DNA of 36,928 bases from Candidatus Parcubacteria bacterium. GTDB lineage: Bacteria; Patescibacteriota; Minisyncoccia; 2-02-FULL-40-12; GWA2-44-9. A model generated the notes under the pieces. It had not been told where the DNA came from and did no database searches. It saw only the letters and a program-made list of their open reading frames with translations. Numbering within the stretch: position 1 is the first letter of the stretch; the number at the start of each line of letters is the position of its first letter. The DNA lies in NCBI GenBank assembly GCA_019662005.1, contig JAIFWG010000003.1, positions 1 through 36,928 of the forward strand, in the 5' to 3' direction. The position numbers and the translations under genes are program-made. Below, piece by piece: positions 5,920 through 29,308 of the stretch.

Positions 5920-6029
5920 TTGTGATGGGACAAGGAATTTAATCAACAAATTTAAACATATCAAGTTCCGGTTTCCGTTTTATTTTGATACTTGCCGGGA
6001 CTGCATCATTAAATGGGAGGAATTGAGTC

Positions 6030-8194: not shown

Positions 8195-8570
8195 AAAAGG
8201 GATCTCTGATGCTGTTAGAAGAAACAAAACAAGCACCGTTGACATGGCAATTGAAGAGAGACTTGCGAGTGCCGGACGGCGAGAACGTCACAGTATCATC
8301 TATCTCGGAGAGTTGGTGGAGCGACACCTGCGCGGGGAGATTGGCGCAATCCTCAAAGCTCTCACGGCAGGACGTATTTCAACTGAGCTTGGAAAATCAT
8401 CAGTATCTGGCGTCTCAGCAGAACGGGTATTAGGGCGTCTTGAGATGGCTGAAAGTTTATGGAATGACCTTGAACAGTTTGTGCATGACAAGGATAAATT
8501 GATTTCACAAGAAATAGAATCGATTCCGAAAGAAGATTTGTCGACAAAAACATTTAATTATCACCCTTAG
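8181..8570 (+). CDS. hypothetical protein (129 aa)
   Basis: Track ORF 8058..8570 trimmed to MGRAKKG, which overlaps the portal end by 14 nt. Confidence 0.5.
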   Translation: MGRAKKGISDAVRRNKTSTVDMAIEERLASAGRRERHSIIYLGELVERHLRGEIGAILKALTAGRISTELGKSSVSGVSAERVLGRLEMAESLWNDLEQFVHDKDKLISQEIESIPKEDLSTKTFNYHP

Positions 8571-8841: not shown

Positions 8842-9879
8842 ATGAAATGTGAGGAAACTAACGTGACGGTAAAACAAACAATCTTAAATCCAGAGCAAAT
8901 AGCAGCTAATCGGGCACAAGATGCGACTTCCGAAAAGGAGTTCGCTTCTCGTTTAGCTCAGAGTATGGATTTGCCCTCAACTCTCACTGAAGAGATTGAT
9001 CAAGAAGAAAAGAACAGACAATCTCCTCCAAAAGTTGAGGAACCGGAAGAGCAGGTTGAGGAATCAGAAGAGCCTGAAACTGAAGATGTCGCCGAAGAAC
9101 CTGAATCAGAGACAGAGGAATCAGTTGAGGAAGAAGAAGATTTGATTCCGAGATCGAAGGTTCAGAAACGCTTTGATGAGCAGACGGCTCAAATCAAGGA
9201 TCTTGAGCGAAGACTTCAGAAAGAGACTCAAGCTCGGGAAGCGGCGACTCCAAAGACTGATCCTCAGCAGGATGCTCTTGAGAAAATGAGTGAATCGGAA
9301 CTAAAGACTTTAAAACGTCAAATTCGTGTGGAACAAATAAATCTTGGGGCAGACAAGGCGAATAGAGCTCAGCTTGATCAGCTTCTCGATTTAGAAGAAA
9401 AAATTGACCGCACGATTCAAACGGCTCCGGCTCGTTTTCAAAACACTCAAATCTCCCGGTTTAACCAAGCAGTTCAAGCAACAGCAGAGTCCTTTGAGAA
9501 TTTTGAATCTGTGAAAACGCAAATTTTTCAGCAAGCAAAGGCCATTTATGAATCAAGCCCCGAATTGCAGGGATCGGTTGCAGGCCAAGAGCGTGCATGG
9601 AAATTTGCAGTTGATCATTTCACGGCGGTTCAGAAAGCATCTGAGGGCAAATCCGATACGACTGAGTTAAAGAGACAGGTGAACACCTTGAAGAAGAAAA
9701 TCAGTGTGGATACGACTTCTAAGAAAGGCATTCAGCAGCCGGACAATGATGCCAAGCTTAAACGCCGGGCAATCAATGGGACGGAAGCTGACAAAACGAA
9801 TTTCTTGAAGACGCGCATCAATGTCAATGAACTTGTGCCTGATTCAGAGCTTCGCTCCCTGGAGAACATGAGGAGATAG
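8842..9879 (+). CDS. scaffolding protein (putative)
   Basis: Highly acidic E-rich N-region (EEPEEQVEESEEPETEDVAEEPESETEESVEEEED) followed by coiled-coil-like sequence, located between portal and capsid. The start is ambiguous among TTG 8824, ATG 8842 and GTG 8863 (the last has GAGGAA upstream). Confidence 0.65.
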   Translation: MKCEETNVTVKQTILNPEQIAANRAQDATSEKEFASRLAQSMDLPSTLTEEIDQEEKNRQSPPKVEEPEEQVEESEEPETEDVAEEPESETEESVEEEEDLIPRSKVQKRFDEQTAQIKDLERRLQKETQAREAATPKTDPQQDALEKMSESELKTLKRQIRVEQINLGADKANRAQLDQLLDLEEKIDRTIQTAPARFQNTQISRFNQAVQATAESFENFESVKTQIFQQAKAIYESSPELQGSVAGQERAWKFAVDHFTAVQKASEGKSDTTELKRQVNTLKKKISVDTTSKKGIQQPDNDAKLKRRAINGTEADKTNFLKTRINVNELVPDSELRSLENMRR

Positions 9880-9883
9880 TCCA

Positions 9884-10810
9884 GTGGCAACACAACCTAC
9901 AGTTAACACCTATTTACAGAAAGGTAATCGTGAAGATTTAGCGTCTGAAGTTGCAGCGCTTTATCCTGACGAAGTTCCTTTCTTTGCAATGGCAGGGAAA
10001 GTTAAAGCAACGGCCAGAACACATGAATGGATGACGGATGTTCTTGCGTCTACCAGTCGTACTGGCTCCATCGAAGGAGCATCGGTTACTTACGCCGCTC
10101 CTGGAATGCGTACTCGTGTTACGAACTATACGCACATTAAACACCGCAACTTTGACGTTACCTTCACTCAAATTGCCGTGGATAAAGCGGGTGTTCGTGA
10201 TGAAATTGCGAACCAGGTCATGAAAGCGATGAAAAGTTTGCTTCGTGATTATGATTCCATTTTCTTGTGGAGCACTGTAGCAACGGCTGGCGCTACGGGT
10301 TTGGCTCGGCGTTCTGCGGGTCTTTTCAAGGTCATTATCTCGAACACGGCCTTAGGAACGGGAACTGGCTCATCGGGACGTATCCAGATCACTGAAGCGA
10401 ATGTGAATATCGTGCTTCAGAAGATTTGGAATAATGGTGGAAATCCTCGCGCTTTGTTTTGCGGTGGATTCCATAAACGCGTTATTTCCCAGAAGTTCAG
10501 CGCGAAGACGGGTTTCACGTGGAACATTGAAGCCTCGACTCGCACTGCGATTCAGAACGTGAATAAGTACGAGGGTTCATTTGGGACGGTTGACGTTATT
10601 CCTGACCGGAACATGATGGCTTCTCGCGTTGCAATCGTGACTCCTGAAATGGCGAAGATTGCAATTCTTCGCGATGTTCAGCAGTACAAAGGGGCAGCAA
10701 CAGCCTCTTCTGTCAAGGGCTGGGTCGAAGCTGAAATGTGTCTTCAGTACGGAAATGAGAAGGCTCATGGTCAACTTCGTTGGCTGAGATCAACGGGAAC
10801 AATTTCGTAA
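9884..10810 (+). CDS. major capsid protein (HK97 fold, SU10/DUF5309-like signature)
   Basis: GTG start with an AGGAGA RBS. The N-terminal GNREDLASEVAALYPDEVPFFAMAGKVKATARTHEWMTDVLA matches the REDL...P.eTPf...HeW.tD.L signature I associate with this capsid family. Position after the scaffold supports the call. Confidence 0.8.
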   Translation: MATQPTVNTYLQKGNREDLASEVAALYPDEVPFFAMAGKVKATARTHEWMTDVLASTSRTGSIEGASVTYAAPGMRTRVTNYTHIKHRNFDVTFTQIAVDKAGVRDEIANQVMKAMKSLLRDYDSIFLWSTVATAGATGLARRSAGLFKVIISNTALGTGTGSSGRIQITEANVNIVLQKIWNNGGNPRALFCGGFHKRVISQKFSAKTGFTWNIEASTRTAIQNVNKYEGSFGTVDVIPDRNMMASRVAIVTPEMAKIAILRDVQQYKGAATASSVKGWVEAEMCLQYGNEKAHGQLRWLRSTGTIS

Positions 10811-10833: not shown

Positions 10834-10859
10834 CAGGGGTTTTCCTTTAAAAACCCCTG
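10834..10859 (+). terminator. post-capsid stem-loop (weak terminator or attenuator)
   Basis: CAGGGGTTTT / AAAACCCCTG 10-bp stem directly after the capsid stop. No strong U-tract follows. Confidence 0.35.
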
Positions 10860-10865
10860 ACTCTT

Positions 10866-11324
10866 ATGGAAGAACAGACAAGTCCAATATTAGAACAGGG
10901 AAGACAGGAATCCATCCGGGAAATCGTTAAAGAAAATCCCGGAATTGAGCAGAATGCTTTTGATTTTATTAAAGCGGTAGGGAAACGATTTATCGAAAAA
11001 CAGGTGGCCCGTTTTCCTGAAATCTGTGAGATCGCAAGAGTTCAGAACATCCTTGAATGGAAAGATTACGAAAAATACGGGAAAAAAGGGAAGTTTACAG
11101 ATTCTTATGGGTGGTCAGAAGACGGAACTTTCAAGTTTGATTACCAAATCCCTCAAGAACTTTACATGTTCATGGTGAATCTTGTTGATCCCTACTTTTG
11201 GGATAATGAAAGAGTTTGGCGAAAATTCATGAAAAGAATCTGTGATGGGGAAGATGCCCTTGATTCATTGATGCAAGCCAAGATGTATTACGGGCCTGCG
11301 TTCCGCCCGATGGAGACAAATTAG
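10866..11324 (+). CDS. hypothetical protein
   Basis: Track ORF in the late operon. Confidence 0.6.
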   Translation: MEEQTSPILEQGRQESIREIVKENPGIEQNAFDFIKAVGKRFIEKQVARFPEICEIARVQNILEWKDYEKYGKKGKFTDSYGWSEDGTFKFDYQIPQELYMFMVNLVDPYFWDNERVWRKFMKRICDGEDALDSLMQAKMYYGPAFRPMETN

Positions 11325-11792
11325 ATGGGCCAGACAATTACAAGGTTGGCGGACAGAAAATTAGAGGGCAAAGCTGTTTTTAATAACCGTTTTGTTGTTG
11401 AGATTTGCGAAAAGGTCCATGTCCATTATAGGAATCTACGAATCATTCTTTCTCTTAAAGATTGGATTAGCGTCGCGCAAGGAATGGCGGACGCCTTGAA
11501 ACGTTGGGAAAAACTTGGAAGCCCCGATCCTGGAGATAGACACATTGAATTATGTCGCAAAGAGGTAGCCTGTGACCCTATTGGTTCTGACGATATTGCT
11601 ATTAATCTTAATCGCAATTTGTACCTTTTAAATGAAGGAAAGATTTTTGCTGAGGGCGCAGAACTTAGCGATCAAACTTACATTCACTTAAAAGTTAGAG
11701 ATCAGCGCCTAGAACTGTCCCTCAGCGAATTCAATCAACTCGCGGATGCAATTATTGAAGCGAAGGATAAATTGTGCGTACCGCAGTCCTAG
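11325..11792 (+). CDS. hypothetical protein
   Basis: Track ORF that starts right after the upstream stop. Confidence 0.6.
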   Translation: MGQTITRLADRKLEGKAVFNNRFVVEICEKVHVHYRNLRIILSLKDWISVAQGMADALKRWEKLGSPDPGDRHIELCRKEVACDPIGSDDIAINLNRNLYLLNEGKIFAEGAELSDQTYIHLKVRDQRLELSLSEFNQLADAIIEAKDKLCVPQS

Positions 11793-12379
11793 TTCCGATT
11801 TATAAAAGATTGGAATATGCGAGGCTTTGTATTGAGGCTATTAAAAAATCAAAAGATTATGAATCTGCTGAATTTTACTTTTTGGATGGTTCCTCAGGTC
11901 TTCGGAACACCATCATTGATTTCTTTGAAGAGGTTCGCGGCAAATATGAATATTTGGCAAAGATGGATTCCGATTGCCTCGTCCCTGATAACTGGTTGAA
12001 AGATTTGACGCATATTCTTGATACGACCGATTATGACATTATTTCTCCCAATGTCTTTCCATCTAATGCAGCCTTTCTTTATGGGCGAGAAGGCGCGATC
12101 GTTCGTCCCTCCGAATCAGTGGGGGGCCTTTGGTGCATGAGAGCGAGCCTCATAAAAGATATGAATTTTGAGCGTTATTCTCCAAATGGAATTTCCGGGG
12201 CTTTTAATCTTTTAACTCAGATCATTAAAGAGAATGAGGCGAAGTGTGGTTGGATTCCATCCGTCACCATCCAAGATATCGGACACTGGAGCGGCGCTCA
12301 TCCTCTTCATATTAAGAGCAAAGAACATGAAGAATACTCAGCGGAAGTTAGACGCGATGTCTCCTGGAGTGCGGCATGA
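11774..12379 (+). CDS. glycosyltransferase family 2-like (GT-A)
   Basis: TAVLVPIYKRLEYARLCIEAI is a GT2-type N-terminus, and AKMDSDCLV is DxD-like. GTG start. Confidence 0.6.
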   Translation: MRTAVLVPIYKRLEYARLCIEAIKKSKDYESAEFYFLDGSSGLRNTIIDFFEEVRGKYEYLAKMDSDCLVPDNWLKDLTHILDTTDYDIISPNVFPSNAAFLYGREGAIVRPSESVGGLWCMRASLIKDMNFERYSPNGISGAFNLLTQIIKENEAKCGWIPSVTIQDIGHWSGAHPLHIKSKEHEEYSAEVRRDVSWSAA

Positions 12380-12918
12380 TTGTACGCGTCGATGATGTGT
12401 CTCCAAATACAAACATGGCAGACCTCAATAAATCAGCCGAATTTATGCACGAAGTTTTGGGTGCAGAGATTTGGTATTGCGTCAATCTTTTTTCAAAACT
12501 TTCTATTTATGGAAGCGTTTATCCCGATCTTCCGATGCGAAACCGCGATCTTAAATATTTTATGGATGTAGACAGAATCATGCGCGATTTTGCATTTCCA
12601 GAATATGTGAAGAAGGTATCTCACGGCTTAATTCATTCTGATCATGGAAAAATGTCTGATGGGGCGCAGGAACTCTCTATTGTTACGTCCTGTAGATTTC
12701 TCGGTGCAGATACTTTTGTTACGCCTTTCACGTCATGGAATGAGGCGACAGAACGAATTTGTGAAAAAAACCGGATTACGCTTATTAACGGACAAGGTTG
12801 GAAATCTCTCGAATCTGAGCCATTCTCTATTGACCATGACAAGTGGTTTTTTCATCCGTGGCGAATGAACTCCTCGCAAATAAGGGTCGCGATCAATGCC
12901 TGCAAAATCAATGCATAG
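12376..12918 (+). CDS. putative polysaccharide deacetylase-like protein (NodB/DUF2334-like)
   Basis: The RVDDVSP N-terminal motif and SHGLIHSDH (HxxxH-type) resemble deacetylase metal-binding motifs. ATGA-coupled to the upstream GT. Confidence 0.35.
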   Translation: MIVRVDDVSPNTNMADLNKSAEFMHEVLGAEIWYCVNLFSKLSIYGSVYPDLPMRNRDLKYFMDVDRIMRDFAFPEYVKKVSHGLIHSDHGKMSDGAQELSIVTSCRFLGADTFVTPFTSWNEATERICEKNRITLINGQGWKSLESEPFSIDHDKWFFHPWRMNSSQIRVAINACKINA

Positions 12919-13441
12919 TTACGCTGAAACGCTCTATGCGATTCTGGATGAATTTAAACCAAGGGTTTGTTTTGAGTGGGGGCCTGGAACATCCACTCAG
13001 ATCATGGCTTTACATCCAAGTGTCCAGCGTCTCGATTCTGTCGAGAATGAGCAGATTTTCTATGATTTGATTGAACGGCTTCATTATGACAATGTGAATT
13101 TTCATTATTTTCGTGAAATGGATGAATACGTCGAGGCCCTTAAAGGCAATTATGATTTTGTGTTTATTGATGGGCGTGATCGTTCAAGATGTCTAGATGT
13201 TGCAAAAAAACATTCTCCTATCGTTATGTTGCATGACGCGGCTCGTTCAGACTATAGGCAAGCTATTCATGAATATCAATTCAAAGTTTGGACAGATTTC
13301 GGACAAACGGTGTCTCTTACAAATAATATTCAGGTTTATTCGAGGCTCAAATCTGCTCTCAATACTCTTGAATGTGATGAGCCGAAAGAAGAGAAAATTC
13401 GCATCATTCCACAAGCTGAATTTAAAGGGATGGCGGTATGA
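12896..13441 (+). CDS. class I SAM-dependent methyltransferase-like
   Basis: CFEWGPGTSTQIM resembles motif I (E.G.G.S), and YDFVFIDGRDR resembles the post-motif of O-methyltransferase-type folds. The start could instead be ATG 12911. Confidence 0.5.
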   Translation: MPAKSMHSYAETLYAILDEFKPRVCFEWGPGTSTQIMALHPSVQRLDSVENEQIFYDLIERLHYDNVNFHYFREMDEYVEALKGNYDFVFIDGRDRSRCLDVAKKHSPIVMLHDAARSDYRQAIHEYQFKVWTDFGQTVSLTNNIQVYSRLKSALNTLECDEPKEEKIRIIPQAEFKGMAV

Positions 13442-13983
13442 AACTTGGCTGTCACCAACCGAATTTCGTTCCCTGGCTTTCTTATTTCCACAAGATTCAG
13501 AAAAGCGATGTTTTTGTTGTCATGATTCACTGCCAATTTGAAAAGAATAATTTTCAAAATCGTTTTAATCTTGACGAGAAGTGGATCACCAAACCCGTTA
13601 CGGGTGGAATGACAACCATTAAGGATAAATTCTATACAGATGGAAACAAGCTTATTGATGTGAATATGCCACTCATTATTGGTTTTTGTAAGATGTTAAG
13701 TATTAACACCTCCAAGATTCATTATGACTTTGAAACTAAAAATAAAGGGACTGAGAGGATTATTGAGATATGTAAAAGATTCCAGTGCGATGAATATCTT
13801 ACAAATCCTGACTCAATGAATAAATATCTGGATGAAAAACTGATGAATGACAATGCGATTGAAGTTGTGGGCTGTGAACTTCCAAAACAATATCGAGTTC
13901 CACTTTTTACTGCCCTTGAAACATGGGGAGTGCAGGGCTGCATTAATATCATCCAGAAGGATTGGTCAAAATGCAAAGCGTAA
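13438..13983 (+). CDS. WbqC-like family protein
   Basis: The N-terminus MKLGCHQPNFVPWLSYFHKIQKSDVFVVMIHCQFEKNNFQNRF follows the WbqC pattern (M.QP.f.PyiGYF..i...D.fv.lD.vqf.k....NR). ATGA-coupled. Confidence 0.65.
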   Translation: MKLGCHQPNFVPWLSYFHKIQKSDVFVVMIHCQFEKNNFQNRFNLDEKWITKPVTGGMTTIKDKFYTDGNKLIDVNMPLIIGFCKMLSINTSKIHYDFETKNKGTERIIEICKRFQCDEYLTNPDSMNKYLDEKLMNDNAIEVVGCELPKQYRVPLFTALETWGVQGCINIIQKDWSKCKA

Positions 13984-14426
13984 TGACTATCCCAATGCCT
14001 AATAGGGCTGATTGTGGGGAGAGATATCAATCAGTAATGGCTGATTATGGGGTATTTTTAAATCATAGTTTGATTGATATCGGATGTTCAAATGGATATT
14101 TCATGGCTCGCTTTGTAACTGACGGCGGCGGCAAAGCCGTTGGCGTGGAACCTGACGAAAAATTTAATCATGAGCTTATTGTTAGGAGCATTAAAGACGT
14201 CGAAGGAAATTTTGATATATGTTTTTATCTGGATTTGCATTATCACAATGGGATCAATTATTTCCCGTGGATCAAAGAGCGTGTTTCAACATTGTTTGTT
14301 GCTCCATCAGGCGTTGGAAACAATGACCGGCTAGAAGAAGATTTAACGAAAGAATTTGGAAATCATGAATTTATCAGCAGATCAAATTACGCTAACAGAA
14401 ACATTTACAAAGTGAGGGTTAAATGA
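13983..14426 (+). CDS. SAM-dependent methyltransferase-like
   Basis: LIDIGCSNGYF fits the motif I glycine-rich loop. TAATG overlap with the WbqC-like stop (the track ORF begins at TTG 13962). Confidence 0.5.
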   Translation: MTIPMPNRADCGERYQSVMADYGVFLNHSLIDIGCSNGYFMARFVTDGGGKAVGVEPDEKFNHELIVRSIKDVEGNFDICFYLDLHYHNGINYFPWIKERVSTLFVAPSGVGNNDRLEEDLTKEFGNHEFISRSNYANRNIYKVRVK

Positions 14427-14857
14427 CACCGGGTGATGTTAGATCAATTTATGCTTCAGGAACGGCTTATACATTAACGAACACAGCAACGGCTTTGGAT
14501 TTCGGAACCACTGACCCATCGGTGGTTCTTAACGCTCCTGGAACTTGGCTCATGTTCGGACGCGTAACGGTTCAAAATACAGGGGCAACTTTTGCGGCAA
14601 ATAGAGCCTACACTTTTAAGTTGAGGCGCACGAATAACACAGCTGCTGATGTGACAGGCGCAACGACAACTCAAAGTACAGATATTGTCACGACTGAAAC
14701 AATTACTTACACAGTAACGATTCCTCCGGCTCTTTATACAACAACGGCTGACTCCAATAATGATGCGATTACGATATTTGGGTCAGTCGCAACGGTACCA
14801 TCTGCCGGGACTTTTGACGTAACTGAAGCCTCAATCATAGCGCTCAAAATTTGCTAA
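14423..14857 (+). CDS. Thr/Ala-rich beta-type small protein, function unknown
   Basis: Track ORF, ATGA-coupled. Composition is rich in T, A and N (e.g. TGATTTQSTDIVTTETITYTVTIPPALYTTTAD). Confidence 0.6.
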   Translation: MTPGDVRSIYASGTAYTLTNTATALDFGTTDPSVVLNAPGTWLMFGRVTVQNTGATFAANRAYTFKLRRTNNTAADVTGATTTQSTDIVTTETITYTVTIPPALYTTTADSNNDAITIFGSVATVPSAGTFDVTEASIIALKIC

Positions 14858-15858
14858 TGGATACGCTGAGACAGTTTTTCTCTTTTATGAACGATGTGAG
14901 TTTTCCATACGTCGTTTTGCGTAATTGGGAAAGACTGCCTTATGACGTTACGCTTGGGGAACACAGCGATCTTGATCTATTGGTTTACGATTTTAATCAC
15001 TGGAAAGAAATATTCCCGCAGGCAAAACCAGAGTTTGCTTATCCGCGTGTTCGCATGAAAGTTCCGATTGATGATTCTTATGTCTATGTGGATGTGAGAC
15101 ATATTGGGGATGATTATTATCCGGCTGATTTTGAGAAGGCTATCCTCGAAAAAAGAGAATGGAGTCAGCGGGGATTTTATACTCCAGACCCTCTTCATCA
15201 CAGGATTGCTCTTGCTTATCACATTGTTCATCACAAGGCGATGATCTCAGATAATTACAGAAAATATATCGGAGATGCGAAGATTCCTGAATTGCTTGAG
15301 GCTCTGAGAAATTCTAATGTTGGGTGGATTGAACCCAAAGACAAATCCGTTGGGGCCTTTAATGGATATTGGAAAGGGGCAACATCAATCGTCAGTAGAG
15401 AGAACGGAAAAATTCTAAAAAGACAAGTTAGTTATCTGGATTATTCGCTTGTCCGCAACGAGTATGAAATCCTTTCAAGGTCAAGTTCTATCCATTTCCC
15501 GGAAGTCTATTCTTGTGATGTCGAAAAGAGAGAAATCGAGATTCAGGATTGTGGAGAACCTTTGCTCAATAACCTTCCCGATAACTGGCTTCAGCAGCTA
15601 CGGAATATTTTAAATGATTTAGATACTTTTGGAATTATTCACAGAGACATAAAGCTTGATAATTTAATGGTGAAATACGATGTGATTAAGCTGATTGATT
15701 TCGGATGGGCCAAGTTCAAATCTGAGGAGGACGAGAAACCGCCGCCGTCCTGTCTTGGATTTCCAAACAAACCGTCGTGGGGTTTCGACGACAATTATTC
15801 TATGAACCGAGTTATTAAACAAATCGAGTTTGAATTGGAAGAGAAGGTTTTTGCATGA
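14857..15858 (+). CDS. nucleotidyltransferase-like N-domain fused to a Hanks-type (eukaryotic-like) protein-kinase-fold domain
   Basis: The N-part HSDLDLLVYD is NTase-like. The C-part has HRDIKLDN (15640-15663) and DFG (15697-15705), plus GKILKRQ and NEYEIL upstream. TAATG overlap at the start. Confidence 0.65.
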   Translation: MDTLRQFFSFMNDVSFPYVVLRNWERLPYDVTLGEHSDLDLLVYDFNHWKEIFPQAKPEFAYPRVRMKVPIDDSYVYVDVRHIGDDYYPADFEKAILEKREWSQRGFYTPDPLHHRIALAYHIVHHKAMISDNYRKYIGDAKIPELLEALRNSNVGWIEPKDKSVGAFNGYWKGATSIVSRENGKILKRQVSYLDYSLVRNEYEILSRSSSIHFPEVYSCDVEKREIEIQDCGEPLLNNLPDNWLQQLRNILNDLDTFGIIHRDIKLDNLMVKYDVIKLIDFGWAKFKSEEDEKPPPSCLGFPNKPSWGFDDNYSMNRVIKQIEFELEEKVFA

Positions 15859-16994
15859 AGATTCTTGGCATAGAACGCGATGATTCAGCTTGCAACTTTT
15901 ATAGAATTCTCATGCCTCTTGATAATGTCCTGAAACAGAATCTGGCTGATGTTGCAATCATTCACCAGAGAGATGTCGCCATGGATCGATCCATCAAACT
16001 TGCTCTTGAAGCTGATGTCATTGTGTTCCAACGGCCCGCAAACGAAGAATGGCTTCAGTTTATTAAGACTTGCCGGAAGTACGGAAAACACATTGTGGCC
16101 GATTATGATGACGATCCTTTCAATACTTCACCACTTAATCCCTTTTATCAATATATCGGGACAGAACCCGTGGAATATACATGGGCGGATGGAACGAAAG
16201 AAATGCTTTGGTCAGAAGATATGGTCAGTGGAGACGGTAATAAAATATTCAACATTGAGCGAAACATTGCTTTTCGGGATATGTTTAGATTGAATTTCAA
16301 GAAGGCTGATATGGTGACTTGTACGACTTCAATCTTACAAAACGAATTCTTGAAAATCACTCCAAACGTTTCAGTGCTTCCGAACGTTATTGATCCGACT
16401 TTTTGGCCTACGCTTCCGGAGTTTCCAAAAAGAGAAGTTAGGATTGGTTGGCAAGGTGGTTGGTCGCATTACGAAGATTTATATGAAATTGTTCCAGTGA
16501 TTAAAAATGTCCTTGAAAAACATGACAACGTGAAATTCGTTTATTTTGGAGATCAAAGATTCCGACATCTTTTCAAAGGCTGCGATCAAAACAAGATTGA
16601 ATGGCAGGACTGGGTGCATCATGAAACGTACCCTTACAAGATGACGCTTCTTAATCTTGATATTGGCATTTGTCCTCTTGCCAATAATTCTTTCAATTGG
16701 ACGAAATCCGCAATCAAGTGGATGGAATATTCGATGCTTGGATGCGCGACCGTAGCGGCGAATATTGAACCGTACGCCCCTGCGATTAAGAGCGGAGAAA
16801 CCGGATTTCTTGTTTCTGACAATTCTGAATGGGAAATGGCTCTTGACGCACTCATTGAAAATGGATGGCAACGCCGCCTCATGGCAAAACGGGCTTTCGC
16901 AGATGTCATGGAAAATCACAACATTCAGACAAAAGCAAAGTTATGGGTCGAAGCTTACGACGCAATGCTTCGCCCTAAAGAGGTAACTGTATGA
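15855..16994 (+). CDS. GT-B fold glycosyltransferase (GT1/GT4-like)
   Basis: The C-terminal MEYSMLGCATVAANIEPYAPAIKSGETGFLV resembles the E..g....EAma.G.PVva......e.i..g..G.lv donor-binding motif. ATGA-coupled at both ends. Confidence 0.6.
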   Translation: MKILGIERDDSACNFYRILMPLDNVLKQNLADVAIIHQRDVAMDRSIKLALEADVIVFQRPANEEWLQFIKTCRKYGKHIVADYDDDPFNTSPLNPFYQYIGTEPVEYTWADGTKEMLWSEDMVSGDGNKIFNIERNIAFRDMFRLNFKKADMVTCTTSILQNEFLKITPNVSVLPNVIDPTFWPTLPEFPKREVRIGWQGGWSHYEDLYEIVPVIKNVLEKHDNVKFVYFGDQRFRHLFKGCDQNKIEWQDWVHHETYPYKMTLLNLDIGICPLANNSFNWTKSAIKWMEYSMLGCATVAANIEPYAPAIKSGETGFLVSDNSEWEMALDALIENGWQRRLMAKRAFADVMENHNIQTKAKLWVEAYDAMLRPKEVTV

Positions 16995-17668
16995 GTATGA
17001 CCTTCGCGGATCAACAGACGCTTTTAAGTGTTCTTTTGGGAGATAGTAATACTAGTACGGATGACGCTTTTTCTTTAACCACAAGGAAATTATTCCTTAA
17101 CCGTGGAGAGCTTCATTTTTGCAAGGATTCGAAATGCGTTCGTGAAAAAGCCGCAGGAACCATTTCTGGGACTCAACTTGTATTCCCATCAGGGATTCTT
17201 CGGCCCGTGGCTCTTATTGTTAATGGCAAAGATATCTGGAATGACAGGCAGACATCCATTACTGAATATGAGCGGTGGAATACATCTGGAAGCGCATATC
17301 CTGCTGTATATATTACGGAGGAATCTGGTTCCAGATATTTTAATTTTTGGGGTTCTTCTAACGGTAAGGCTTATATCCTTCATTATATAAGGAAGCCCAC
17401 AGTGGCTCTTTCTTCTGATAGTGACGAATCCATCCTCCAGGATGAATTCAGGGAAGCTTCTGTTTATTGGGCAGCTGCAGAACTTCTTCAGCAAGTTGGT
17501 AAAAATACAATCGCTGACAAGTACGCTGCAAAATACAACAAATTTGTTCGAGATGGCGAAGCTTATGGTGAAGAAATCTATCTCAATTTAATGTTTGCAA
17601 AGCCAGACACAAACCTTATCGATGCTGGAGATGCGGATGTTGTAGGGCAGGGATTTGATTTTGCTTGA
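16991..17668 (+). CDS. virion structural protein (adaptor / tail-tubular-A-like position)
   Basis: A 225-aa ORF that precedes a 528-aa structural ORF and the fibres. The call rests on synteny only. Confidence 0.4.
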   Translation: MSMTFADQQTLLSVLLGDSNTSTDDAFSLTTRKLFLNRGELHFCKDSKCVREKAAGTISGTQLVFPSGILRPVALIVNGKDIWNDRQTSITEYERWNTSGSAYPAVYITEESGSRYFNFWGSSNGKAYILHYIRKPTVALSSDSDESILQDEFREASVYWAAAELLQQVGKNTIADKYAAKYNKFVRDGEAYGEEIYLNLMFAKPDTNLIDAGDADVVGQGFDFA

Positions 17669-19280: not shown

Positions 19281-19991
19281 ATGGCATATGACTCGGATTT
19301 GGTAAGAACAAAAAACTGGGGAACTGAAATTTTAACGGACTCTGACCTAGAGGGGCAGTTCGATCTCATTATCAACTGGGTTATGGCTGCTCTTAACGCA
19401 ACGACCGGGCATGCGCATGACGGTTCAAGCAATCATGGCCCGAAATTGTCATCCTCTGCGGTAACGACGACTTTTGGGAATGGGTTTACAACGGTAAGTG
19501 CAGCGACAGGGGATTATGTGGTAATTGCCTCTGATGTTTCAGATTCAAATAAAACAAAGAAAGCCTTAGTTTCAGACATTGTAACTCTTGCGGCAATTAC
19601 TCCGGCCTCTCAATCTGAAATGGAAGCTGCCACAAATAACACAAAAAGCGTGACCCCCGTTGGCGTGAAATGGAACCCTGGAGTTGCAAAAGCGTGGGGA
19701 GTCTTCAATGGCTCTGGAACTCCAGCTTTTACCACATCCTACAACATGGACGCCACGATTACGGATAACGGAACGGGTGACTACACCGTGACCATGACAA
19801 CGGATTTTTCAAGTGCGGATTACGCATTCGTTGGAGGATGTCTTTCGGCTCAAGCTGGAAACACCACAACGATTGCAATTAAGAACGGGACTTCGCCTGC
19901 TGCTGGAAGCGTTAATTTTACAACAACTAACGAAGCCGGATCTGCGGTTGATTGCACAAGAGCGAGCTTTGCACTTTTTGGAGATCAATAG
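19281..19991 (+). CDS. tail fibre protein
   Basis: AGGAG RBS. The N-terminus (DSDLVRTKNWGTEILTDSDLEGQFDLIINWV...TGHAHDGSSNHGPKL) is a recurrent phage tail-fibre N-terminal signature. Confidence 0.6.
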   Translation: MAYDSDLVRTKNWGTEILTDSDLEGQFDLIINWVMAALNATTGHAHDGSSNHGPKLSSSAVTTTFGNGFTTVSAATGDYVVIASDVSDSNKTKKALVSDIVTLAAITPASQSEMEAATNNTKSVTPVGVKWNPGVAKAWGVFNGSGTPAFTTSYNMDATITDNGTGDYTVTMTTDFSSADYAFVGGCLSAQAGNTTTIAIKNGTSPAAGSVNFTTTNEAGSAVDCTRASFALFGDQ

Positions 19992-19992
19992 T

Positions 19993-20358
19993 ATGCCACA
20001 TTTAGATAGGGTGATTGTTTGGAATAGACCGGACGGTGGAGTGAGTGTAACGCATCTTCATTCAGATGACATGCTTCCTGGTGAGAGCGAGGATGATTTC
20101 ATTGCGAGGTTTACTTTAAAGATTAAGAGTAAAAATCCTGAGCTTGGTAAATCCGTAGAGCTTGTGAAACAGAAGATCGATCTTCCTGATTCTTCTAAGC
20201 AGGATGAGTGGTCTGTAAATGGGGATAAGGTTGAAGTTGATCCGGCAAAGACGCAGACCAAAATTGATAAGGAAGCGGAGAAGGCAGCGATCTTTCAGAA
20301 GCTCGGTGTGAGTAAAGAAGAGTTCCAGGCTGTTGCTTTGGTGAAATCCGGTGGCTGA
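19993..20358 (+). CDS. hypothetical protein (121 aa)
   Basis: Track ORF 19813..20358 trimmed to ATG 19993 (MPHLDRV), which lies just after the upstream stop. Confidence 0.5.
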   Translation: MPHLDRVIVWNRPDGGVSVTHLHSDDMLPGESEDDFIARFTLKIKSKNPELGKSVELVKQKIDLPDSSKQDEWSVNGDKVEVDPAKTQTKIDKEAEKAAIFQKLGVSKEEFQAVALVKSGG

Positions 20359-21766
20359 TGGTTTTTCAGAACTCTCCAGCGATAAACTACAAACAGTTCA
20401 GGGCATTTCTGAACTTAATCGAATGCTTCAATTTTTGTATGAGAATGTCGCTGGGGACGGAGTTAAACAAAGGGTTTATTCAGGGATAGGAAGTCCGGAA
20501 GGCTCTGTGGTCGCTGAGATTGGTTCATTCTACATGCGGCTTGATGGAGCGCCTGGCACCTGTGCTTATATCAAGGAATCGGGCGTTCAGACCGCAACAG
20601 GTTGGACGTCGATAGTCGTTGCCGGAGGAGGGTCTGGGGGTTCTGGTAATGCTCAATATGTGACACTTGCAACAGACGCGAGTTTAACCGCAGAGAGAGT
20701 TTTGACGGAGGGTGCCAATATTAGTCTTACCGATGCTGGCGCAAATTCAACCATTACTATAAAGGCAACTCCAGCGGGATCTGATACCCAGATTCAGTTT
20801 AATGATGACGGAACATTTGGTGGGGATTCTGATTTAACTTGGGATAAGACAGCTAATATTTTTAAAATTAATGGCGATATTAATTTTTCAGAAACGACGG
20901 ATGCAGATAAGACAATCAAAGTCTTGGATCAGGCTACTGCAAACACTAACGGTAATCGTTTATTCATTACCGGGTCCGACGGAAATGGTTCGGCTGATGG
21001 GGGAGATCTTATTGTATCTGGAGGCGATGGCGGCGTTCTTGGAGGCGATGGCGGCTACATTAGTTTTTCAGCTGGTAACGCTACCGGAGCGGGTCGTGGC
21101 GGAGAATTTATTGTCTATGCAGGGGGAGGCGGCGAAACGGGCGACGGTGGTACTGCCTATTTAGTGGGCGGTGATGGCGGGAGCACCAGCGGAGATGCAG
21201 GTGGGGTCGGATTAACGGCTGGAAATGTATTTGTAGATGCGGACGGGTATGGAGGAGATGTCTTTCTTACCGCTGGCGCAGGTGCCACGAGCGGAAATTA
21301 TAATGGCAGCATTTATATCCAAATGGGGCAAGGTTCTGCATTGCCAGGCGTCAACACCGGAACGGTTTATATCTTTGGTAAGGATGTGATCGATGTAACG
21401 GCAGAGCAAAATTTTGTTAATTTTGGCCCATTTGAAATGGGCGTTGCATCCGGGACCACGATTACGAATCAACGTTCTTATCAATTCCTAGCGACTACTA
21501 TTAACGGTGTTGCCGGTGGCGGTGCGGAAACAGTCACTAACGCAGCAACGGTTTATATCGATGCGGCTCCTTCAGGTTCCGACATAACAATCACAAATGC
21601 TTATTCTCTTTGGGTAGATGCTGGCCTTGCTCGTTTTGACGGAAACGGAACGAACGTTTTTGAGCTTCCAGCAAATGCTACTGATCCTACAGGCGGTGGC
21701 GGTGCGGCGGTTGGAAGAATCCCAATCCGAGTTGGAGGAGCTACGAAATATTTAGCTTATTATTAA
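20351..21766 (+). CDS. tail fibre/spike protein with Gly-rich repeat core
   Basis: YVTLATDASLTAERVLTEGANISLTDAGANSTITI and the C-terminal GRIPIRVGGATKYLAYY are recurrent fibre motifs. GGDGG-type repeats fill the middle. Confidence 0.6.
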   Translation: MADGFSELSSDKLQTVQGISELNRMLQFLYENVAGDGVKQRVYSGIGSPEGSVVAEIGSFYMRLDGAPGTCAYIKESGVQTATGWTSIVVAGGGSGGSGNAQYVTLATDASLTAERVLTEGANISLTDAGANSTITIKATPAGSDTQIQFNDDGTFGGDSDLTWDKTANIFKINGDINFSETTDADKTIKVLDQATANTNGNRLFITGSDGNGSADGGDLIVSGGDGGVLGGDGGYISFSAGNATGAGRGGEFIVYAGGGGETGDGGTAYLVGGDGGSTSGDAGGVGLTAGNVFVDADGYGGDVFLTAGAGATSGNYNGSIYIQMGQGSALPGVNTGTVYIFGKDVIDVTAEQNFVNFGPFEMGVASGTTITNQRSYQFLATTINGVAGGGAETVTNAATVYIDAAPSGSDITITNAYSLWVDAGLARFDGNGTNVFELPANATDPTGGGGAAVGRIPIRVGGATKYLAYY

Positions 21767-26367: not shown

Positions 26368-27096
26368 ATGACTCAGCTTTATGATTCTTTCGCAAAGAAT
26401 ATGGAGCTGAATCCCACAATTAATGTAGCCCAGCCAGAAATTAACATTCCAGAAATTAAAGTTCCGGATATTTATGTTCCCGAAATAATAATTCCGACCA
26501 TTAATGTACCAACTCCCCAAGTCACCGTCAACCCAGAAATCAATATTGACTTAAATAAAGTCATAGATGCTCTTGAAAATCTAAAATACCTATCAAACCT
26601 ACCAAATAAGCCACTCTCGGTTCGTATGTCTGATGGGAATAAGTTTGTGAAGGTTATCCAACAACTTCAGAAAGCAACTGACAATCTCGGCGTAGTTTAC
26701 GCTGGCCAAAGCGGAATCACTTCCGACGAACTTACTATTATCTCCGGAAGAGACGCGACTGATTTTATATGGAATGGGACAGCAAAATTAACTCCTAAAT
26801 TCGCCACAATTGCAGCGAGTTCTTCTGGAAACAATACTATCGTTTCAGCCGTAAGCACTAAAAAAATCAGAGTTATTCAGATGGATTTAATGGCCGATGG
26901 GGATGTTAATGTAAAGTTTCAAAGCGGAGCAGGTGGAACAGATATTACGGGACTTTCTTACCTGACTCTTAACACGGGTCTTGTGAGAGGCTATTCTCCT
27001 ATCGGATGGTTTGAAACTGCGGCCAGCAATCTTCTTAATTTAAATTTAAGTGACGCGGTCGCGGTAGGGGGTTCGCTTACCTACGTAGAGGTTTGA
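26368..27096 (+). CDS. structural-type protein with N-terminal PxIxV pentapeptide repeats
   Basis: Track ORF (TTG 26338, or ATG 26368). It contains PEINI PEIKV PDIYV PEIII PTINV PTPQV, followed by a beta-rich C-domain. Confidence 0.5.
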   Translation: MTQLYDSFAKNMELNPTINVAQPEINIPEIKVPDIYVPEIIIPTINVPTPQVTVNPEINIDLNKVIDALENLKYLSNLPNKPLSVRMSDGNKFVKVIQQLQKATDNLGVVYAGQSGITSDELTIISGRDATDFIWNGTAKLTPKFATIAASSSGNNTIVSAVSTKKIRVIQMDLMADGDVNVKFQSGAGGTDITGLSYLTLNTGLVRGYSPIGWFETAASNLLNLNLSDAVAVGGSLTYVEV

Positions 27097-28541
27097 TGTT
27101 AAGCGTAATCATTCCTTCCCGAAATGAAATATATCTAGAAAAAACTATCCGAAATATCCTTGAGAACGCCCAAGGAGATATTGAAGTCATCGCGGAACTG
27201 GATGGGTACGTTCCCGACCCTCAGATTATCATTGATGATCCTCGCGTAAAGTTTGTTCATCATCCCACCTCTATCGGGCAACGCGCCTGTATTAATCACG
27301 GGGTTTCGATTGCTTCTGGAAAATTCATCATGAAACTTGATGCTCATTGTGCGGTAGCTCTTAGATTTGATGTGGAGCTTGCAAAGAACTGTGAAGAGTC
27401 ATGGACGGTCGTTCCCCGAATGTACAACCTCGATATTCATACCTGGAAACCAAAACTTCACAAGCTCACCGATTATATGTATTTCACAAGTCCTAATGAT
27501 CCAGACAAACCATTTCGCGCAGCCTACTACGAAGGCCGAGAATACCGAAGACAACACAAAAACCCCGAAATAATTGATGACACCATGTGTTGTATGGGGC
27601 CGGGCTGGTTCATGCATAAAAAAAGGTTTTTAGAGCAGGGGGGTTGTGATGAGTTCCATGAAGGTGGCTGGGGTCAGCAAGGGATTGAAGTTTCGCTTAA
27701 AGCATGGCTTTCCGGCGGCGCTCTTAAAGTAAATAAAAATACTTGGTTCGCTCATTGGTTTCGAGGCGGTGGTGGGCCTGGGTTTCCTTATCACCTTTCA
27801 GGTAATCAGGTTGAGAGAGTCCGAGATTATAGCAAGGATCTTTGGCTGAATGACAAATGGCCGCTGGCAACTCGAAAATTGTCCTGGGTCATTGAGAAAT
27901 TCAGACCGCCTACCTGGGATGAATATGTCGAACCTAATGAAAACGAGAAAAAGAATTTATTCGTCAAATTTTACAGGCACATGATCAAACCTGGAAAGAA
28001 TGTTATTCGCTGGAGAGGTCATCGAGTTCTAAAACTGCCATCTGACCTTGCCTTATATCAACAAGCTATCTTTGAAAAAAAACCTGATTTTATTGTTGAG
28101 ACAGGAACTAAATGGGGAGGTTCTGCGATTTTCTTGGCGGATATGTGTGAGTTGAATGGGCATGGTCAGGTTATTACCGTTGATATTGCACCGCTTCACA
28201 AACCAGAGCATCCAAGGATTACTTACATCACAGGAAATTCAATAGATAAAGCAATCGTTGAACAGATTAAAGGAATCGTTGGAGATAAATCGGTCATGGT
28301 CATATTAGATTCTGACCATTCATTCCATCATGTGATGTGGGAACTTCATCGCTATAACAAGCTTGTGACGCTTGGACAGTATCTTGTCGTTGAAGATTGC
28401 CACAATAAATACGGAGAGCGTCATCATCCGATGGACGCAAGAGACTGGTTTTTAAAAAGAACCGGAAGATTCAAGTTAGAAGATTTCGCGAGTAAATATT
28501 TAGTGGGTCTTTCAATGGATGGGTGGTTGCTCAGAAAATGA
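27096..28541 (+). CDS. bifunctional GT27-like (ppGalNAc-transferase-type) glycosyltransferase / CmcI-type methyltransferase
   Basis: N-half motifs are SVIIPSRNE, KLDAHCAV (27333-27356), GGWGQQGIEVSLKAWLSGG (27663-27719) and TWFAHWFR (27741-27764). C-half motifs are KPDFIVETGTKWGGSAIFLADM and ILDSDHSFHHVMWELHRYNKLV...YLVVEDC. Confidence 0.65.
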   Translation: MLSVIIPSRNEIYLEKTIRNILENAQGDIEVIAELDGYVPDPQIIIDDPRVKFVHHPTSIGQRACINHGVSIASGKFIMKLDAHCAVALRFDVELAKNCEESWTVVPRMYNLDIHTWKPKLHKLTDYMYFTSPNDPDKPFRAAYYEGREYRRQHKNPEIIDDTMCCMGPGWFMHKKRFLEQGGCDEFHEGGWGQQGIEVSLKAWLSGGALKVNKNTWFAHWFRGGGGPGFPYHLSGNQVERVRDYSKDLWLNDKWPLATRKLSWVIEKFRPPTWDEYVEPNENEKKNLFVKFYRHMIKPGKNVIRWRGHRVLKLPSDLALYQQAIFEKKPDFIVETGTKWGGSAIFLADMCELNGHGQVITVDIAPLHKPEHPRITYITGNSIDKAIVEQIKGIVGDKSVMVILDSDHSFHHVMWELHRYNKLVTLGQYLVVEDCHNKYGERHHPMDARDWFLKRTGRFKLEDFASKYLVGLSMDGWLLRK

Positions 28542-29308
28542 AAGTCTCCATAATTATTTCAGTATTAGACAGCCACGAAGCTTTACGACGCCAGCTTCTT
28601 TACATGGAAAAAATGGGAATTCCAGATGATACCGAAATTGTCATCGTGGATGATGGAAGCAAAATCCCTCTCGAATATCACGGTAATCTTCCCGTCCGAA
28701 TTCTTCGTCTTGAATGGCCAGAACGAAAATGGACAGCTTCAATCGCGCGTAACAGGGGAGTTGAAATTGCGAATGGTGAGTATCTTTTAATGTTCGATCT
28801 TGATCATTTCATAAACAAAGAACTCCTTGATATGGTCAGGACATTCGGCGGGTATAAAGTCCAATTCATTAGGTCAATCGCTGTGATATTAGAAGATGGA
28901 AGTTTCTGTCAAGATCCTGAAGTGCTTTTCAAATGGGGATATCCCAAAAGCAGATATATGGTCAGAGGGTTTGGGATTACTCCCCATCCCAATATGTTTG
29001 CGATGCGTAAAGACATATTTTTAAAACTTGGCGGTTATGACGAATATAGAGTCTTGAATCGTCAATATCCCCAAGGCGAAGACAGCTATTTCAAAAAGGT
29101 TTGGCAATCGAAAGTAGATGAAGGCATTTATCATGTCCACACCGAACGCCCGACGATTTACACATTCCCGACTGGAAAAATGTGTGGGGATGTAGATTTC
29201 AATCCCTTTAATCTTTTCCACAATTCAAGCCGTGCCACTGATCGGAACAAATTCTACAAAAAACAAATCGAGAAATATGGACATAACCGGGATATACATT
29301 TCTCTTAA
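28538..29308 (+). CDS. glycosyltransferase family 2
   Basis: KVSIIISVLDSHEAL...EIVIVDDGS, with FDLDH as the DxD motif. The ATG at 28538 forms an ATGA overlap with the upstream stop. Confidence 0.65.
   Translation: MKVSIIISVLDSHEALRRQLLYMEKMGIPDDTEIVIVDDGSKIPLEYHGNLPVRILRLEWPERKWTASIARNRGVEIANGEYLLMFDLDHFINKELLDMVRTFGGYKVQFIRSIAVILEDGSFCQDPEVLFKWGYPKSRYMVRGFGITPHPNMFAMRKDIFLKLGGYDEYRVLNRQYPQGEDSYFKKVWQSKVDEGIYHVHTERPTIYTFPTGKMCGDVDFNPFNLFHNSSRATDRNKFYKKQIEKYGHNRDIHFS

Follow-up and report, generated by a model that had tools for sequence, protein, structure and literature searches.

To our knowledge, the coating of a virion protein with glycan by a phage has so far been shown only for mycobacteriophages, where host sugar nucleotides are the presumed donor. 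Giant viruses such as the chlorovirus PBCV-1 and mimivirus glycosylate their capsids in the cytoplasm with several virus-encoded enzymes, sugar methylation included. Temperate-phage seroconversion (GtrABC, O-acetylases) also employs phage-borne glycosyltransferases; the Gtr proteins reside in the membrane, have their activity in the periplasm and are expressed from genes in the lysogeny region. In the BshA/BshB and MshA/MshB pathways, transfer of HexNAc by a GT4 enzyme is followed by de-N-acetylation. Genes for the O-glycosylation of proteins in the cytoplasm are known to reside at flagellin loci. FlmG (PMC7591256) is an example of the TPR-glycosyltransferases that O-glycosylate flagellin in that compartment, and flagellin glycans can bear phosphodiester-linked methylated groups (PMC10714395). 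Two papers (PMC11600133, PMC12619734) summarise Freeman 2023 as showing that capsid and tail tube proteins are targets of mycobacteriophage glycosyltransferases and an O-methyltransferase.

Our analysis concerns a gene module (11325-16994) of an uncultured, SU10-like and presumably short-tailed phage, found in a 36,928-nucleotide stretch of contig JAIFWG010000003.1 (the window). With moderate confidence, we propose that this module is a phage-encoded cytoplasmic protein-glycosylation pathway that is co-transcribed with the late genes for head and tail and, most likely, decorates a virion surface protein. The features of the locus are:

9884..10810, + strand: major capsid protein, SU10 type (Pfam SU10_MCP, 5.5e-68); context and candidate acceptor
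10834..10859, + strand: 10-bp stem-loop in the 55-nt gap 3' of the capsid gene (fold -16.6 kcal/mol, z = -1.9)
10866..11324, + strand: u1, small conserved head/neck-region protein with a G-W-S motif, kept in all relatives
11325..11792, + strand: u2, 155-aa His/Cys-rich domain protein with no Pfam family (48-68% conservation)
11774..12379, + strand: GT2, soluble glycosyltransferase of GT-A fold (Pfam PF00535, 4.5e-8, 33.7 bits against a cut-off of 23.3)
12376..12918, + strand: putative HexNAc de-N-acetylase with NodB/DUF2334-like motifs, variable member (DUF2334, 0.062, below the Pfam cut-off)
12896..13441, + strand: MT1, putative class I SAM methyltransferase, variable member (weak profile match to methyltransferase-like 3cvo, 1.8e-5)
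13438..13983, + strand: WbqC-family protein (Pfam PF08889, 2.7e-23)
13962..14426, + strand: MT2, SAM methyltransferase, variable member (Pfam Methyltransf_9, 1.5e-7)
14423..14857, + strand: TA, Thr/Ala-rich protein modelled as a free-standing TNF/C1q-like beta jelly-roll domain (AF2 pLDDT 90)
14851..15858, + strand: NTkin, NTase-like N-domain (1-170) and minimal Bud32/RIO-like kinase (~180-335; Pfam Pkinase, 4.6e-8, C-terminal half)
15855..16994, + strand: GT-B, GT4-like glycosyltransferase (Pfam PF13692, Glyco_trans_1_4, 3.1e-8, and PF00534)
16991..17668, + strand: head-to-tail adaptor, SU10 type (Pfam SU10_adaptor, 9.2e-14); context
27093..29308, + strand: separate glyco cluster, a GT2 and rhamnosyl O-methyltransferase fusion plus a second GT2 (Pfam RMNT_CmcI, 7e-41; GT2, 9.5e-13; GT2, 7.7e-11); context

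The preliminary description had recognized a run of coupled late-strand ORFs between the capsid and adaptor genes, and this arrangement was borne out. Eight coupled ORFs (11774-16994), all on the + strand, lie between the SU10-type capsid gene upstream and the SU10-type adaptor gene downstream. Every junction of the module overlaps, by ATGA (4 nt) at 12376, 13438, 14423, 15855 and 16991, by TAATG at 14855-14859 and by 19-23 nt at the remaining three. Sites resembling promoters or terminators are not in excess within the module, according to a site scan. The stem-loop behind the capsid gene was not called by the terminator scan because it lacks a T tract; it is possibly an attenuator or an RNA-stabilising hairpin. 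This operon structure suggests late expression of the module. Its start had been placed at GT2, but the true first gene is u2, at 11325, as domain fusions in cellular proteins (below) indicate. In contrast, u1 is not island-specific: it resembles small post-capsid proteins of other lineages (hhalign probability 89%), and u1-like proteins also occur in island-less phages, e.g. HTVC106P gp58.

Family assignments were made by Pfam searches with cut-offs. GT2, WbqC, one methyltransferase (MT2), the kinase and GT-B/GT4 pass, so these earlier labels stand, whereas the deacetylase, MT1 and NTase-like labels derive from motifs or weak matches and are weak, which counts against our main reading. In the deacetylase-like protein, D6-D7 and H83/H87/H90 (H-x3-H-x2-H) are invariant in 10 homologues. 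MT1 has invariant ExGxGxS and DGR motifs and a profile match to the O-methyltransferase YrrM (5e-3). The sole basis for the NTase-like call is an invariant GxHSDLDLLV...D pattern in NTkin. The kinase half of that protein retains K190, E204, HRD264-266, N271 and DFG283-285 invariantly and matches NCBIfam Bud32 (1e-9); its AF2 model (pLDDT 87.5) gives Foldseek matches to Bud32, Rio2 and Ark1. GT-B matches phrog_7162 'glycosyltransferase' (8e-37) and profiles of the BshA, MshA and PglA structures. For u2, no sequence relative was found in the PDB. The profile searches and junctions thus uphold the view that the ORFs are carbohydrate-active and coupled inside the morphogenesis operon. As had also been described, the ~40 window ORFs scanned include no gene for nucleotide-sugar synthesis, and a second carbohydrate region is present at 27093-29308. 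Homologues of its fusion protein are found on viral contigs of widely differing sizes (8.8-72 kb).

One earlier assignment did not survive. The Thr/Ala-rich ORF had been counted as part of the sugar-modification island; its predicted jelly roll matches the TNF-like lectins PLTL and BC2L-C, ExsF and the C-terminal domains of phage fibre-type proteins (Foldseek), and it is restricted to three lineages (the window, L013/L036 and L038). TA is thus a non-enzymatic accessory insertion, lectin-like or knob-like, outside the pathway. The proposed members are therefore u2, GT2, the deacetylase-like protein, the two methyltransferases, WbqC, the NTase-like/kinase fusion and GT-B.

Comparison with related phages shows that the module is ancestral and lineage-wide. 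The order u1-u2-GT2-[variable]-WbqC-NTkin-GT-B-adaptor is kept in ~25 distinct IMG/VR contigs (capsid protein 51-87% identical). A recent cassette insertion, which had been raised earlier, is ruled out, since these relatives hold the module at the identical place. In L012, identities are 58% for the capsid protein, 54% for u2, 53% for NTkin and 51% for GT-B, versus 42% for the portal and 40% for the adaptor. The GT2 and WbqC genes are found in every IMG/VR relative, and within this core lineage GT-B is always directly upstream of the SU10 adaptor gene. GT-B sits between capsid and SU10 adaptor genes also in other, deeply diverged phage lineages: among 48 distant loci, the adaptor is directly downstream in 24, an SU10 capsid gene is upstream in 12, and other capsid families are present in 12 more. 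Swaps are limited to tailoring enzymes. MT2 is present in about half of the IMG/VR relatives and its order with WbqC swaps, while in L015 and L017 a UDPG-dehydrogenase-like/hexapeptide acyltransferase fusion replaces the NodB-like deacetylase and MT1; L015 adds a PIG-L de-N-acetylase in the deacetylase slot. NTkin has 353 homologues, many on 36-43 kb contigs. Neither NTkin nor u2 has a single tblastn match in 50,697 GenBank phage records, and the absence of a cultured member from this module family counts against our main reading.

Independent support for a protein acceptor comes from cellular homologues. Some cellular proteins, of up to 2784 aa, combine in one chain the u2 domain, NTase-like domain, kinase, TPR, GT2 and GT4; u2 stands on the N-terminal side of the NTase-like and kinase domains, and TPR, GT2 and GT4 come after these. 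The conserved core (u2 domain, NTase-like/kinase, GT2) has its homologues in such multidomain proteins of flagellin loci, themselves uncharacterised. For five such genes, in Desulfatiglandales, Ignavibacteria and three Actinomycetota MAGs, flagellin or hook-associated genes are found no more than 10 kb away, and downstream of a Cytophagia copy comes a GT-B homologue (5e-32). The flagellin link is one of synteny, and about half of the cellular loci have no flagellar gene within 10 kb, which argues against our reading. Nevertheless, since the nearest cellular relatives of the phage enzymes adjoin flagellin genes, a glycan coat on a virion protein appears most likely. The earlier proposal of an action on virion proteins is supported as far as a protein acceptor is concerned, by these homologues and by the lack of membrane segments; that the acceptor is a virion protein we infer. 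It is likely the capsid protein, or possibly the adaptor or a fibre protein.

The same homologues make a flagellin-like host acceptor conceivable, and the target of the enzymes in the infected cell could instead be a host protein or a glycoconjugate of the envelope (flagellin, pilin, S-layer protein or lipid-linked intermediates), whose modification would block superinfection or keep progeny off debris. The WbqC family is named after O-antigen gene clusters, and in some relatives one and the same slot has received a secreted-type TNF-like lectin family and a signal-peptide ORF. We nevertheless consider host modification unlikely. The module is coupled translationally to structural genes, and GT-B keeps its place beside the adaptor even between deeply diverged lineages. 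Membrane or hydrophobic segments are absent from all island proteins (maximum KD19 = 1.34), and none of these proteins is of flippase or Gtr type; in contrast to Gtr systems, all are soluble and encoded in a late operon. The module lies among structural genes, no ORF scanned in the window matched an integrase or repressor family, and expression just before lysis would leave little time for a changed host surface to matter.

More doubtful still is a soluble product, made or tailored by the module (e.g. a nucleotide sugar, a thiol-like glycoside or an aminoglycoside-like compound). The nearest solved relatives of GT-B, BshA and MshA, are paired with de-N-acetylases in bacillithiol and mycothiol synthesis, and the likeness extends to the pairing of a GT4-type enzyme with a de-N-acetylase, of NodB-like or PIG-L type interchangeably. 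Variant islands carry enzymes of nucleotide-sugar type, among them the UDPG-dehydrogenase-like/acyltransferase fusion, and several distant GT-B loci carry PseB-, DegT- and UDP-GlcNAc-2-epimerase-like genes. However, the similarity to BshA/MshA is confined to the generic donor-binding half, a ligase homologue is lacking, and a protein is the presumed acceptor here. Nor does a soluble product explain why the position beside the adaptor is fixed, or why the cellular homologues are fused to TPR domains and have flagellin genes as neighbours. Hypermodification of phage DNA against restriction, with glycosylated or phosphorylated bases, is given almost no weight: it does employ GT-B enzymes and kinases in phages (summarised in PMC12619734, citing Pyle 2024), but the ~40 scanned ORFs include no thymidylate-synthase-like hydroxymethylase, DNA polymerase or P-loop hmU kinase, the kinase present is Bud32/RIO-like, the location is a structural operon rather than a replication module, and the homologues in cells are linked to flagellin genes.

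The proposed glycosylation of a virion protein can be compared with that in the mycobacteriophages (Che8, Corndog/cluster O, Myrna), as summarised in the papers cited above. Both encode glycosyltransferases and a methyltransferase. There, virion structural proteins are the acceptor, whereas here they are the proposed acceptor. The mycobacteriophages are siphoviruses and myoviruses of Actinobacteria, and their capsid protein has a C-terminal Ser/Thr acceptor tail; no such Ser/Thr-rich tail is present in our capsid protein, which counts against our reading. The enzyme set here is much larger (kinase/NTase-like fusion, u2 domain, WbqC, deacetylase) and is fixed between capsid and adaptor genes. 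Flagellin systems (FlmG, PMC7591256; C. difficile type A and P. aeruginosa FgtA clusters, PMC10714395) share soluble enzymes that modify a self-assembling surface protein before assembly, with glycosyltransferase, phosphotransferase and methyltransferase activities together. Unlike the flagellin-locus fusions, the phage version consists of separate genes within a capsid operon and has no TPR acceptor-binding domain, the latter being a further point against us. Giant-virus capsid glycosylation differs in that the viruses are eukaryotic and the enzymes unrelated, and many synthesise their own sugar nucleotides.

The order of glycan steps, their chemistry and their benefit we infer as follows. 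One glycosyltransferase would transfer a HexNAc-type sugar from a host UDP-sugar to the acceptor; GT-B is the likelier initiator of the two because it is the universally retained enzyme, and the second transferase would extend the glycan. The deacetylase would generate a free amine, and the methyltransferases and WbqC would provide tailoring. The NTase-like/kinase protein, with u2, may add a phosphate or phospho-linked group, for which phosphodiester-linked flagellin glycans are a precedent (PMC10714395). Variation restricted to tailoring enzymes is the pattern expected of a diversifying surface glycan. If this proposal is true, the phage could benefit from altered adsorption or from a coat that is hydrophilic or varies antigenically.

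We are somewhat inclined to read the run of coupled genes between the SU10-type capsid and adaptor genes of this phage as a module for glycosylation of a virion protein. ORF annotation of the window and Pfam searches revealed a phage morphogenesis operon on the + strand, spanning 3750 to ~33600, with the following genes.

Within 3750 to ~33600, + strand: small and large terminase
6188-8194, + strand: portal, SU10-type
In the morphogenesis operon, + strand: scaffold
9884-10810, + strand: major capsid protein, SU10-type
10866-11324, + strand: u1
11325-11792, + strand: u2, 155 aa
11774-12379, + strand: GT2-like protein
12376-12918, + strand: deacetylase-like protein
12896-13441, + strand: methyltransferase-like protein MT1
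13438-13983, + strand: WbqC-like protein
13962-14426, + strand: methyltransferase-like protein MT2
14423-14857, + strand: Thr/Ala-rich protein
14851-15858, + strand: NTkin, NTase-like N-domain and kinase-like C-terminal half
15855-16994, + strand: GT-B protein
16991-17668, + strand: adaptor, SU10-type
In the morphogenesis operon, + strand: tail proteins

The contig was deposited in a Candidatus Parcubacteria MAG (locus tags KW791_00475 to _00515) although its sequence is that of a phage genome, and this placement may be a binning artefact. A near-identity DNA search of 50,697 GenBank phage records found no close sequence. The closest capsid proteins, which are ~34% identical, belong to uncultured 'Manatee Spring' podophages, Pelagibacter phage HTVC106P and Methylophilales phage Venkman. 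Terminal repeats were sought in the window as a test of completeness, and none were found. The portal gene is overlapped at its end, in another frame, by a basic 170-aa ORF (8058-8570), which relatives keep at 30-53% identity and which is therefore probably a genuine gene. At 19281-21766, the first 56-87 residues of a 236-aa and a 471-aa protein are kept in relatives while the remainder is replaced, and this pattern of a kept anchor with presumed variable receptor-binding parts is typical of fibre or spike proteins.

A preliminary description of the region proposed an eight-gene sugar-modification island at 11774-16994. All eight ORFs are present at their coordinates, and translational coupling was borne out by five ATGA overlaps, one TAATG overlap and three overlaps of 19-23 nt. 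The start of the module must be moved, however, to u2 at 11325, as the u2 domain is fused to the same partners in cellular proteins. Promoter-like and terminator-like sites in the island region were not in excess when compared with shuffled sequence. The operon's only sizeable intergenic gap, directly after the capsid gene, is occupied by a GC-rich stem-loop of 10 bp (10834-10859; -16.6 kcal/mol, z = -1.9), which may be an attenuator setting the ratio of capsid to downstream expression.

Both glycosyltransferase assignments held. The GT2-like protein matched PF00535 with 33.7 bits (curated cut-off 23.3), and the GT-B protein matched PF13692 with 34.4 bits (cut-off 27) and phrog_7162 at 8e-37. 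In a profile search, the GT-B protein also matched the solved GT4 enzymes BshA, MshA and PglA (7e-7 to 8e-3), in its C-terminal, donor-binding half only. The WbqC-like protein scored 83.4 bits against PF08889 (cut-off 21.3); a PDB profile search returned no solved relative, and a literature search on WbqC returned nothing functional. MT2 matched Methyltransf_9 with 31.1 bits (cut-off 23.8) and has the character of a class I SAM enzyme, while MT1 is a putative one, with weak profile matches to methyltransferase-like structures (3cvo, 1.8e-5). The deacetylase-like protein is a putative de-N-acetylase of CE4/NodB or DUF2334 type: the DD and H-x3-H-x2-H residues are invariant, but the DUF2334 score of 13.3 bits is below the cut-off of 26, and a PDB profile search gave no match. 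Further downstream, after the tail genes, lies a second glyco cluster (27093-29308) consisting of a fusion of GT2 with a rhamnosyl O-methyltransferase (CmcI) and another GT2. Homologues of the fusion sit in viral contigs that differ widely in size (8.8-72 kb), so this gene looks like a mobile accessory gene.

Relatives were collected by IMG/VR scans, of which the capsid-based one yielded 17 relatives and the GT-B profile 79 loci. One gene order is shared by all of the ~25 distinct contigs whose capsid is 51-87% identical and whose downstream sequence is long enough: capsid, u1, u2, GT2, a variable slot, WbqC, sometimes the Thr/Ala-rich gene, NTkin, GT-B, adaptor and a nozzle-like protein. Five of these genes (u2, GT2, WbqC, NTkin and GT-B) occur in every one of them. 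In the related locus L012, where the capsid is 58% identical, the module proteins (NTkin 53%, GT-B 51%, u2 54% identity) are conserved equally to structural proteins or more (portal 42%, adaptor 40%). The suggestion that the island might be a recent cassette insertion was thus ruled out by comparison with related phages, among which the synteny is lineage-wide. The cultured relatives Venkman and HTVC106P are without the module.

The variable slot holds a NodB-like deacetylase, MT1 and MT2. L015 and L017 instead have a UDP-glucose-dehydrogenase-like/hexapeptide acyltransferase fusion there, and L015 adds a PIG-L de-N-acetylase in place of the deacetylase-like protein, which we count as indirect support for the deacetylase assignment. 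Changing the de-N-acetylase type, and putting acylation in place of methylation, is the pattern expected of a pathway that tailors the amine of a HexNAc. Relatives also carry inserted HNH endonuclease-like ORFs at the capsid/u1 and u2/GT2 junctions (L010 6014-6583; L015 11876-12592), and in L017 an additional methyltransferase gene separates the capsid gene from u1. L007 encodes, between GT-B and the adaptor, a different Thr/Ala/Ser-rich protein of 193 aa (11099-11677) with a signal-peptide-like N-terminus and a weak Reelin subrepeat match.

The Thr/Ala-rich protein belongs to a family for which 341 homologues were detected, with a conserved C-terminal domain of ~135 aa behind varied N-termini (none, Sec signal peptides or fibre-like segments). 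Its model is a TNF/C1q-like jelly roll (pLDDT 90), and among its nearest structures are two bacterial TNF-like lectins, PLTL and BC2L-C (TM 0.58-0.70, E about 1e-6). The others in this nearest group are ExsF, an exosporium protein, and the C-terminal domains of phage proteins of fibre, pectate-lyase and C1q type; a PDB profile search returned nothing meaningful. Because of the jelly-roll model and its restriction among relatives to L013/L036 and L038, this protein is an accessory insertion and not a pathway enzyme. In L020, two copies of this TNF-like lectin or knob domain (6001-6579 and 9230-9919) flank a pectate-lyase-like protein.

GT-B is found at the head-tail junction even in lineages where it is only 25-33% identical. 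The SU10 adaptor is the first downstream ORF in half of the distant GT-B loci (24/48), and an SU10 capsid gene lies upstream in 12, with other capsid families in 12 more. The minimal form consists of capsid, u1-like protein and GT-B (L064), and a richer one adds a Methyltransf_24 enzyme (L055). MW202801 adds radical-SAM, GT2, PhyH, methyltransferase and NodB-like genes, and other distant loci carry PseB/CapD-, DegT- and UDP-GlcNAc-2-epimerase-like sugar-nucleotide genes. Since GT-B keeps its junction position while its companions vary, it is the constant element and the remainder is modular. The u1-like proteins that precede GT-B in other lineages raised u1 as a dedicated GT-B partner or acceptor, but this specific link was rejected because they also occur in glycosyltransferase-free phages (e.g., HTVC106P gp58).

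The kinase assignment for the C-terminal half of NTkin was upheld (Pkinase 33.2 bits, cut-off 31.7; Bud32 1e-9). Its AlphaFold model is confident (pLDDT 87.5), with Foldseek matches to Bud32, Rio2 and Ark1. Judged from its residues K190, E204, H264-R-D266, N271 and D283-F-G285, invariant in 31 sequences, this half is a minimal Bud32/RIO-like kinase with all catalytic residues invariant. The N-domain carries a GxHSDLDLLV...D pattern in which G36, H38, S39, D40, D42 and D81 are invariant and lie on predicted strands; it was without match in Pfam or PDB profile searches, and for its NTase-like fold the Foldseek list is dominated by the kinase domain. Profile searches likewise found no Pfam family or PDB relative for u2. 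Its many conserved His and Cys residues suggest that the domain binds metal. It has an internal duplication (H-x-H-[YW]-R-[ND]-L-R at residues 32-39 and 121-128), and some homologues carry extra copies of its N-terminal half. Both NTkin and u2 are absent from the 50,697 GenBank phage records (tblastn).

An exhaustive search found 157 relatives of u2. Many are long proteins that begin with the u2 domain, which is followed by NTase-like, kinase, TPR and GT2 segments; the largest add several GT4 domains. Pfam recognized the kinase, TPR, GT2 and GT4 parts, and HMMs of the window lineage matched the u2, NTase-like, kinase and GT2 domains in the same order at 1e-36 to 1e-6. As these domains are fused in cellular proteins, u2, NTkin and a GT2 act elsewhere as a single polypeptide, of which the phage has a split version. 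When one genome per species was scanned, fusions turned up in MAGs of Gaiellales/Thermoleophilia, Ignavibacteria, Desulfatiglandales and Cytophagia. The Desulfatiglandales fusion gene has a flagellin gene on one side and, on the other, FlbT, a 1291-aa GT2-TPR protein, FlaF, FlgL and FlgK; in Ignavibacteria, genes for a GT2-TPR protein, flagellin, FliS and FliD come after the fusion gene; and in three Actinomycetota loci, flagellin, FlgK or FlgL is encoded no more than 10 kb away. In Cytophagia, the fusion gene precedes a homologue of the phage GT-B (5e-32) and sugar-nucleotide genes. By synteny, these uncharacterised fusions would be linked to flagellin.

We propose that the module would carry out late, cytoplasmic glycosylation of a phage structural protein. 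Donors would be host UDP-HexNAc-type sugars; transfer would be followed by de-N-acetylation, methylation and a WbqC step, and NTkin with u2 would provide a phosphate-dependent step. All island proteins are predicted to be soluble, with no hydrophobic 19-mer above 1.34, and this excludes periplasmic Gtr-type or Wzx/Wzy-type chemistry. A Gtr-type lysogeny module with membrane GtrA, GtrB and Gtr(type) was not found, the genes lying instead in the structural operon. Modification of a host protein or the envelope is, in our judgement, unlikely, and a soluble molecule as the product is more improbable still. DNA as the target is very improbable, as no hydroxymethylase (ThyA-like), polymerase or P-loop kinase was found among the ~40 window ORFs scanned with Pfam.

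Virus-encoded virion glycosylation is known in giant viruses and, to our knowledge, experimental proof of its phage-encoded form has so far been confined to mycobacteriophages. For the latter, modification by phage-encoded enzymes is summarised in PMC11600133 and PMC12619734. The mycobacteriophage type involves a Ser/Thr-rich C-terminal capsid extension; in contrast, no such acceptor tail was found on the capsid of the window, and its C-terminus is equal in length to those of island-less relatives. Flagellin is the classic target of cytoplasmic O-glycosylation, by soluble and often TPR-bearing transferases (FlmG, PMC7591256). Its glycans may bear phosphodiester-linked, methylated groups, as in C. 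difficile type A and with P. aeruginosa FgtA, made by clusters of glycosyltransferase, phosphotransferase and methyltransferase genes (PMC10714395). The u2, NTase-like, kinase and GT2 domains of the flagellin-locus fusions are homologous to the island proteins, whereas the TPR region, which would bind the acceptor, is present only in the fusions and gave no Pfam match in any island protein.

A broader reading, which we offer tentatively, is that u2, the NTase-like domain, the Bud32/RIO-like kinase and GT2/GT4 could form an unrecognised protein-modification machine that builds phosphate-linked, tailored glycans on self-assembling polymers. It might possibly exist as giant fusions in flagellin loci and as a split operon in a widespread lineage of uncultured short-tailed phages. 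Its acceptors would then, just as speculatively, be flagellar filaments in cells and capsids in phages, where the coat could diversify through swaps of tailoring enzymes. In the literature searched, glycosylation islands within the capsid operons of short-tailed phages are not described. The fixed position between capsid and adaptor genes in SU10-like phages, the kinase, NTase-like and u2 components, and the homology to flagellin-locus fusion proteins all appear new in that literature.

If virion protein glycosylation is the true function, an entire lineage of abundant environmental phages would share glycan-coated capsids as a trait that is conserved and selected. In simpler or richer form, this would extend to several neighbouring lineages in which the GT-B gene adjoins the adaptor gene. 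Such a trait would bear on virion stability, adsorption, grazing, immune recognition and the reading of virome proteomics. Further, the tie to kinase-containing fusions in flagellin loci would offer a testable function for a Pfam-less domain and a new bacterial enzyme architecture.
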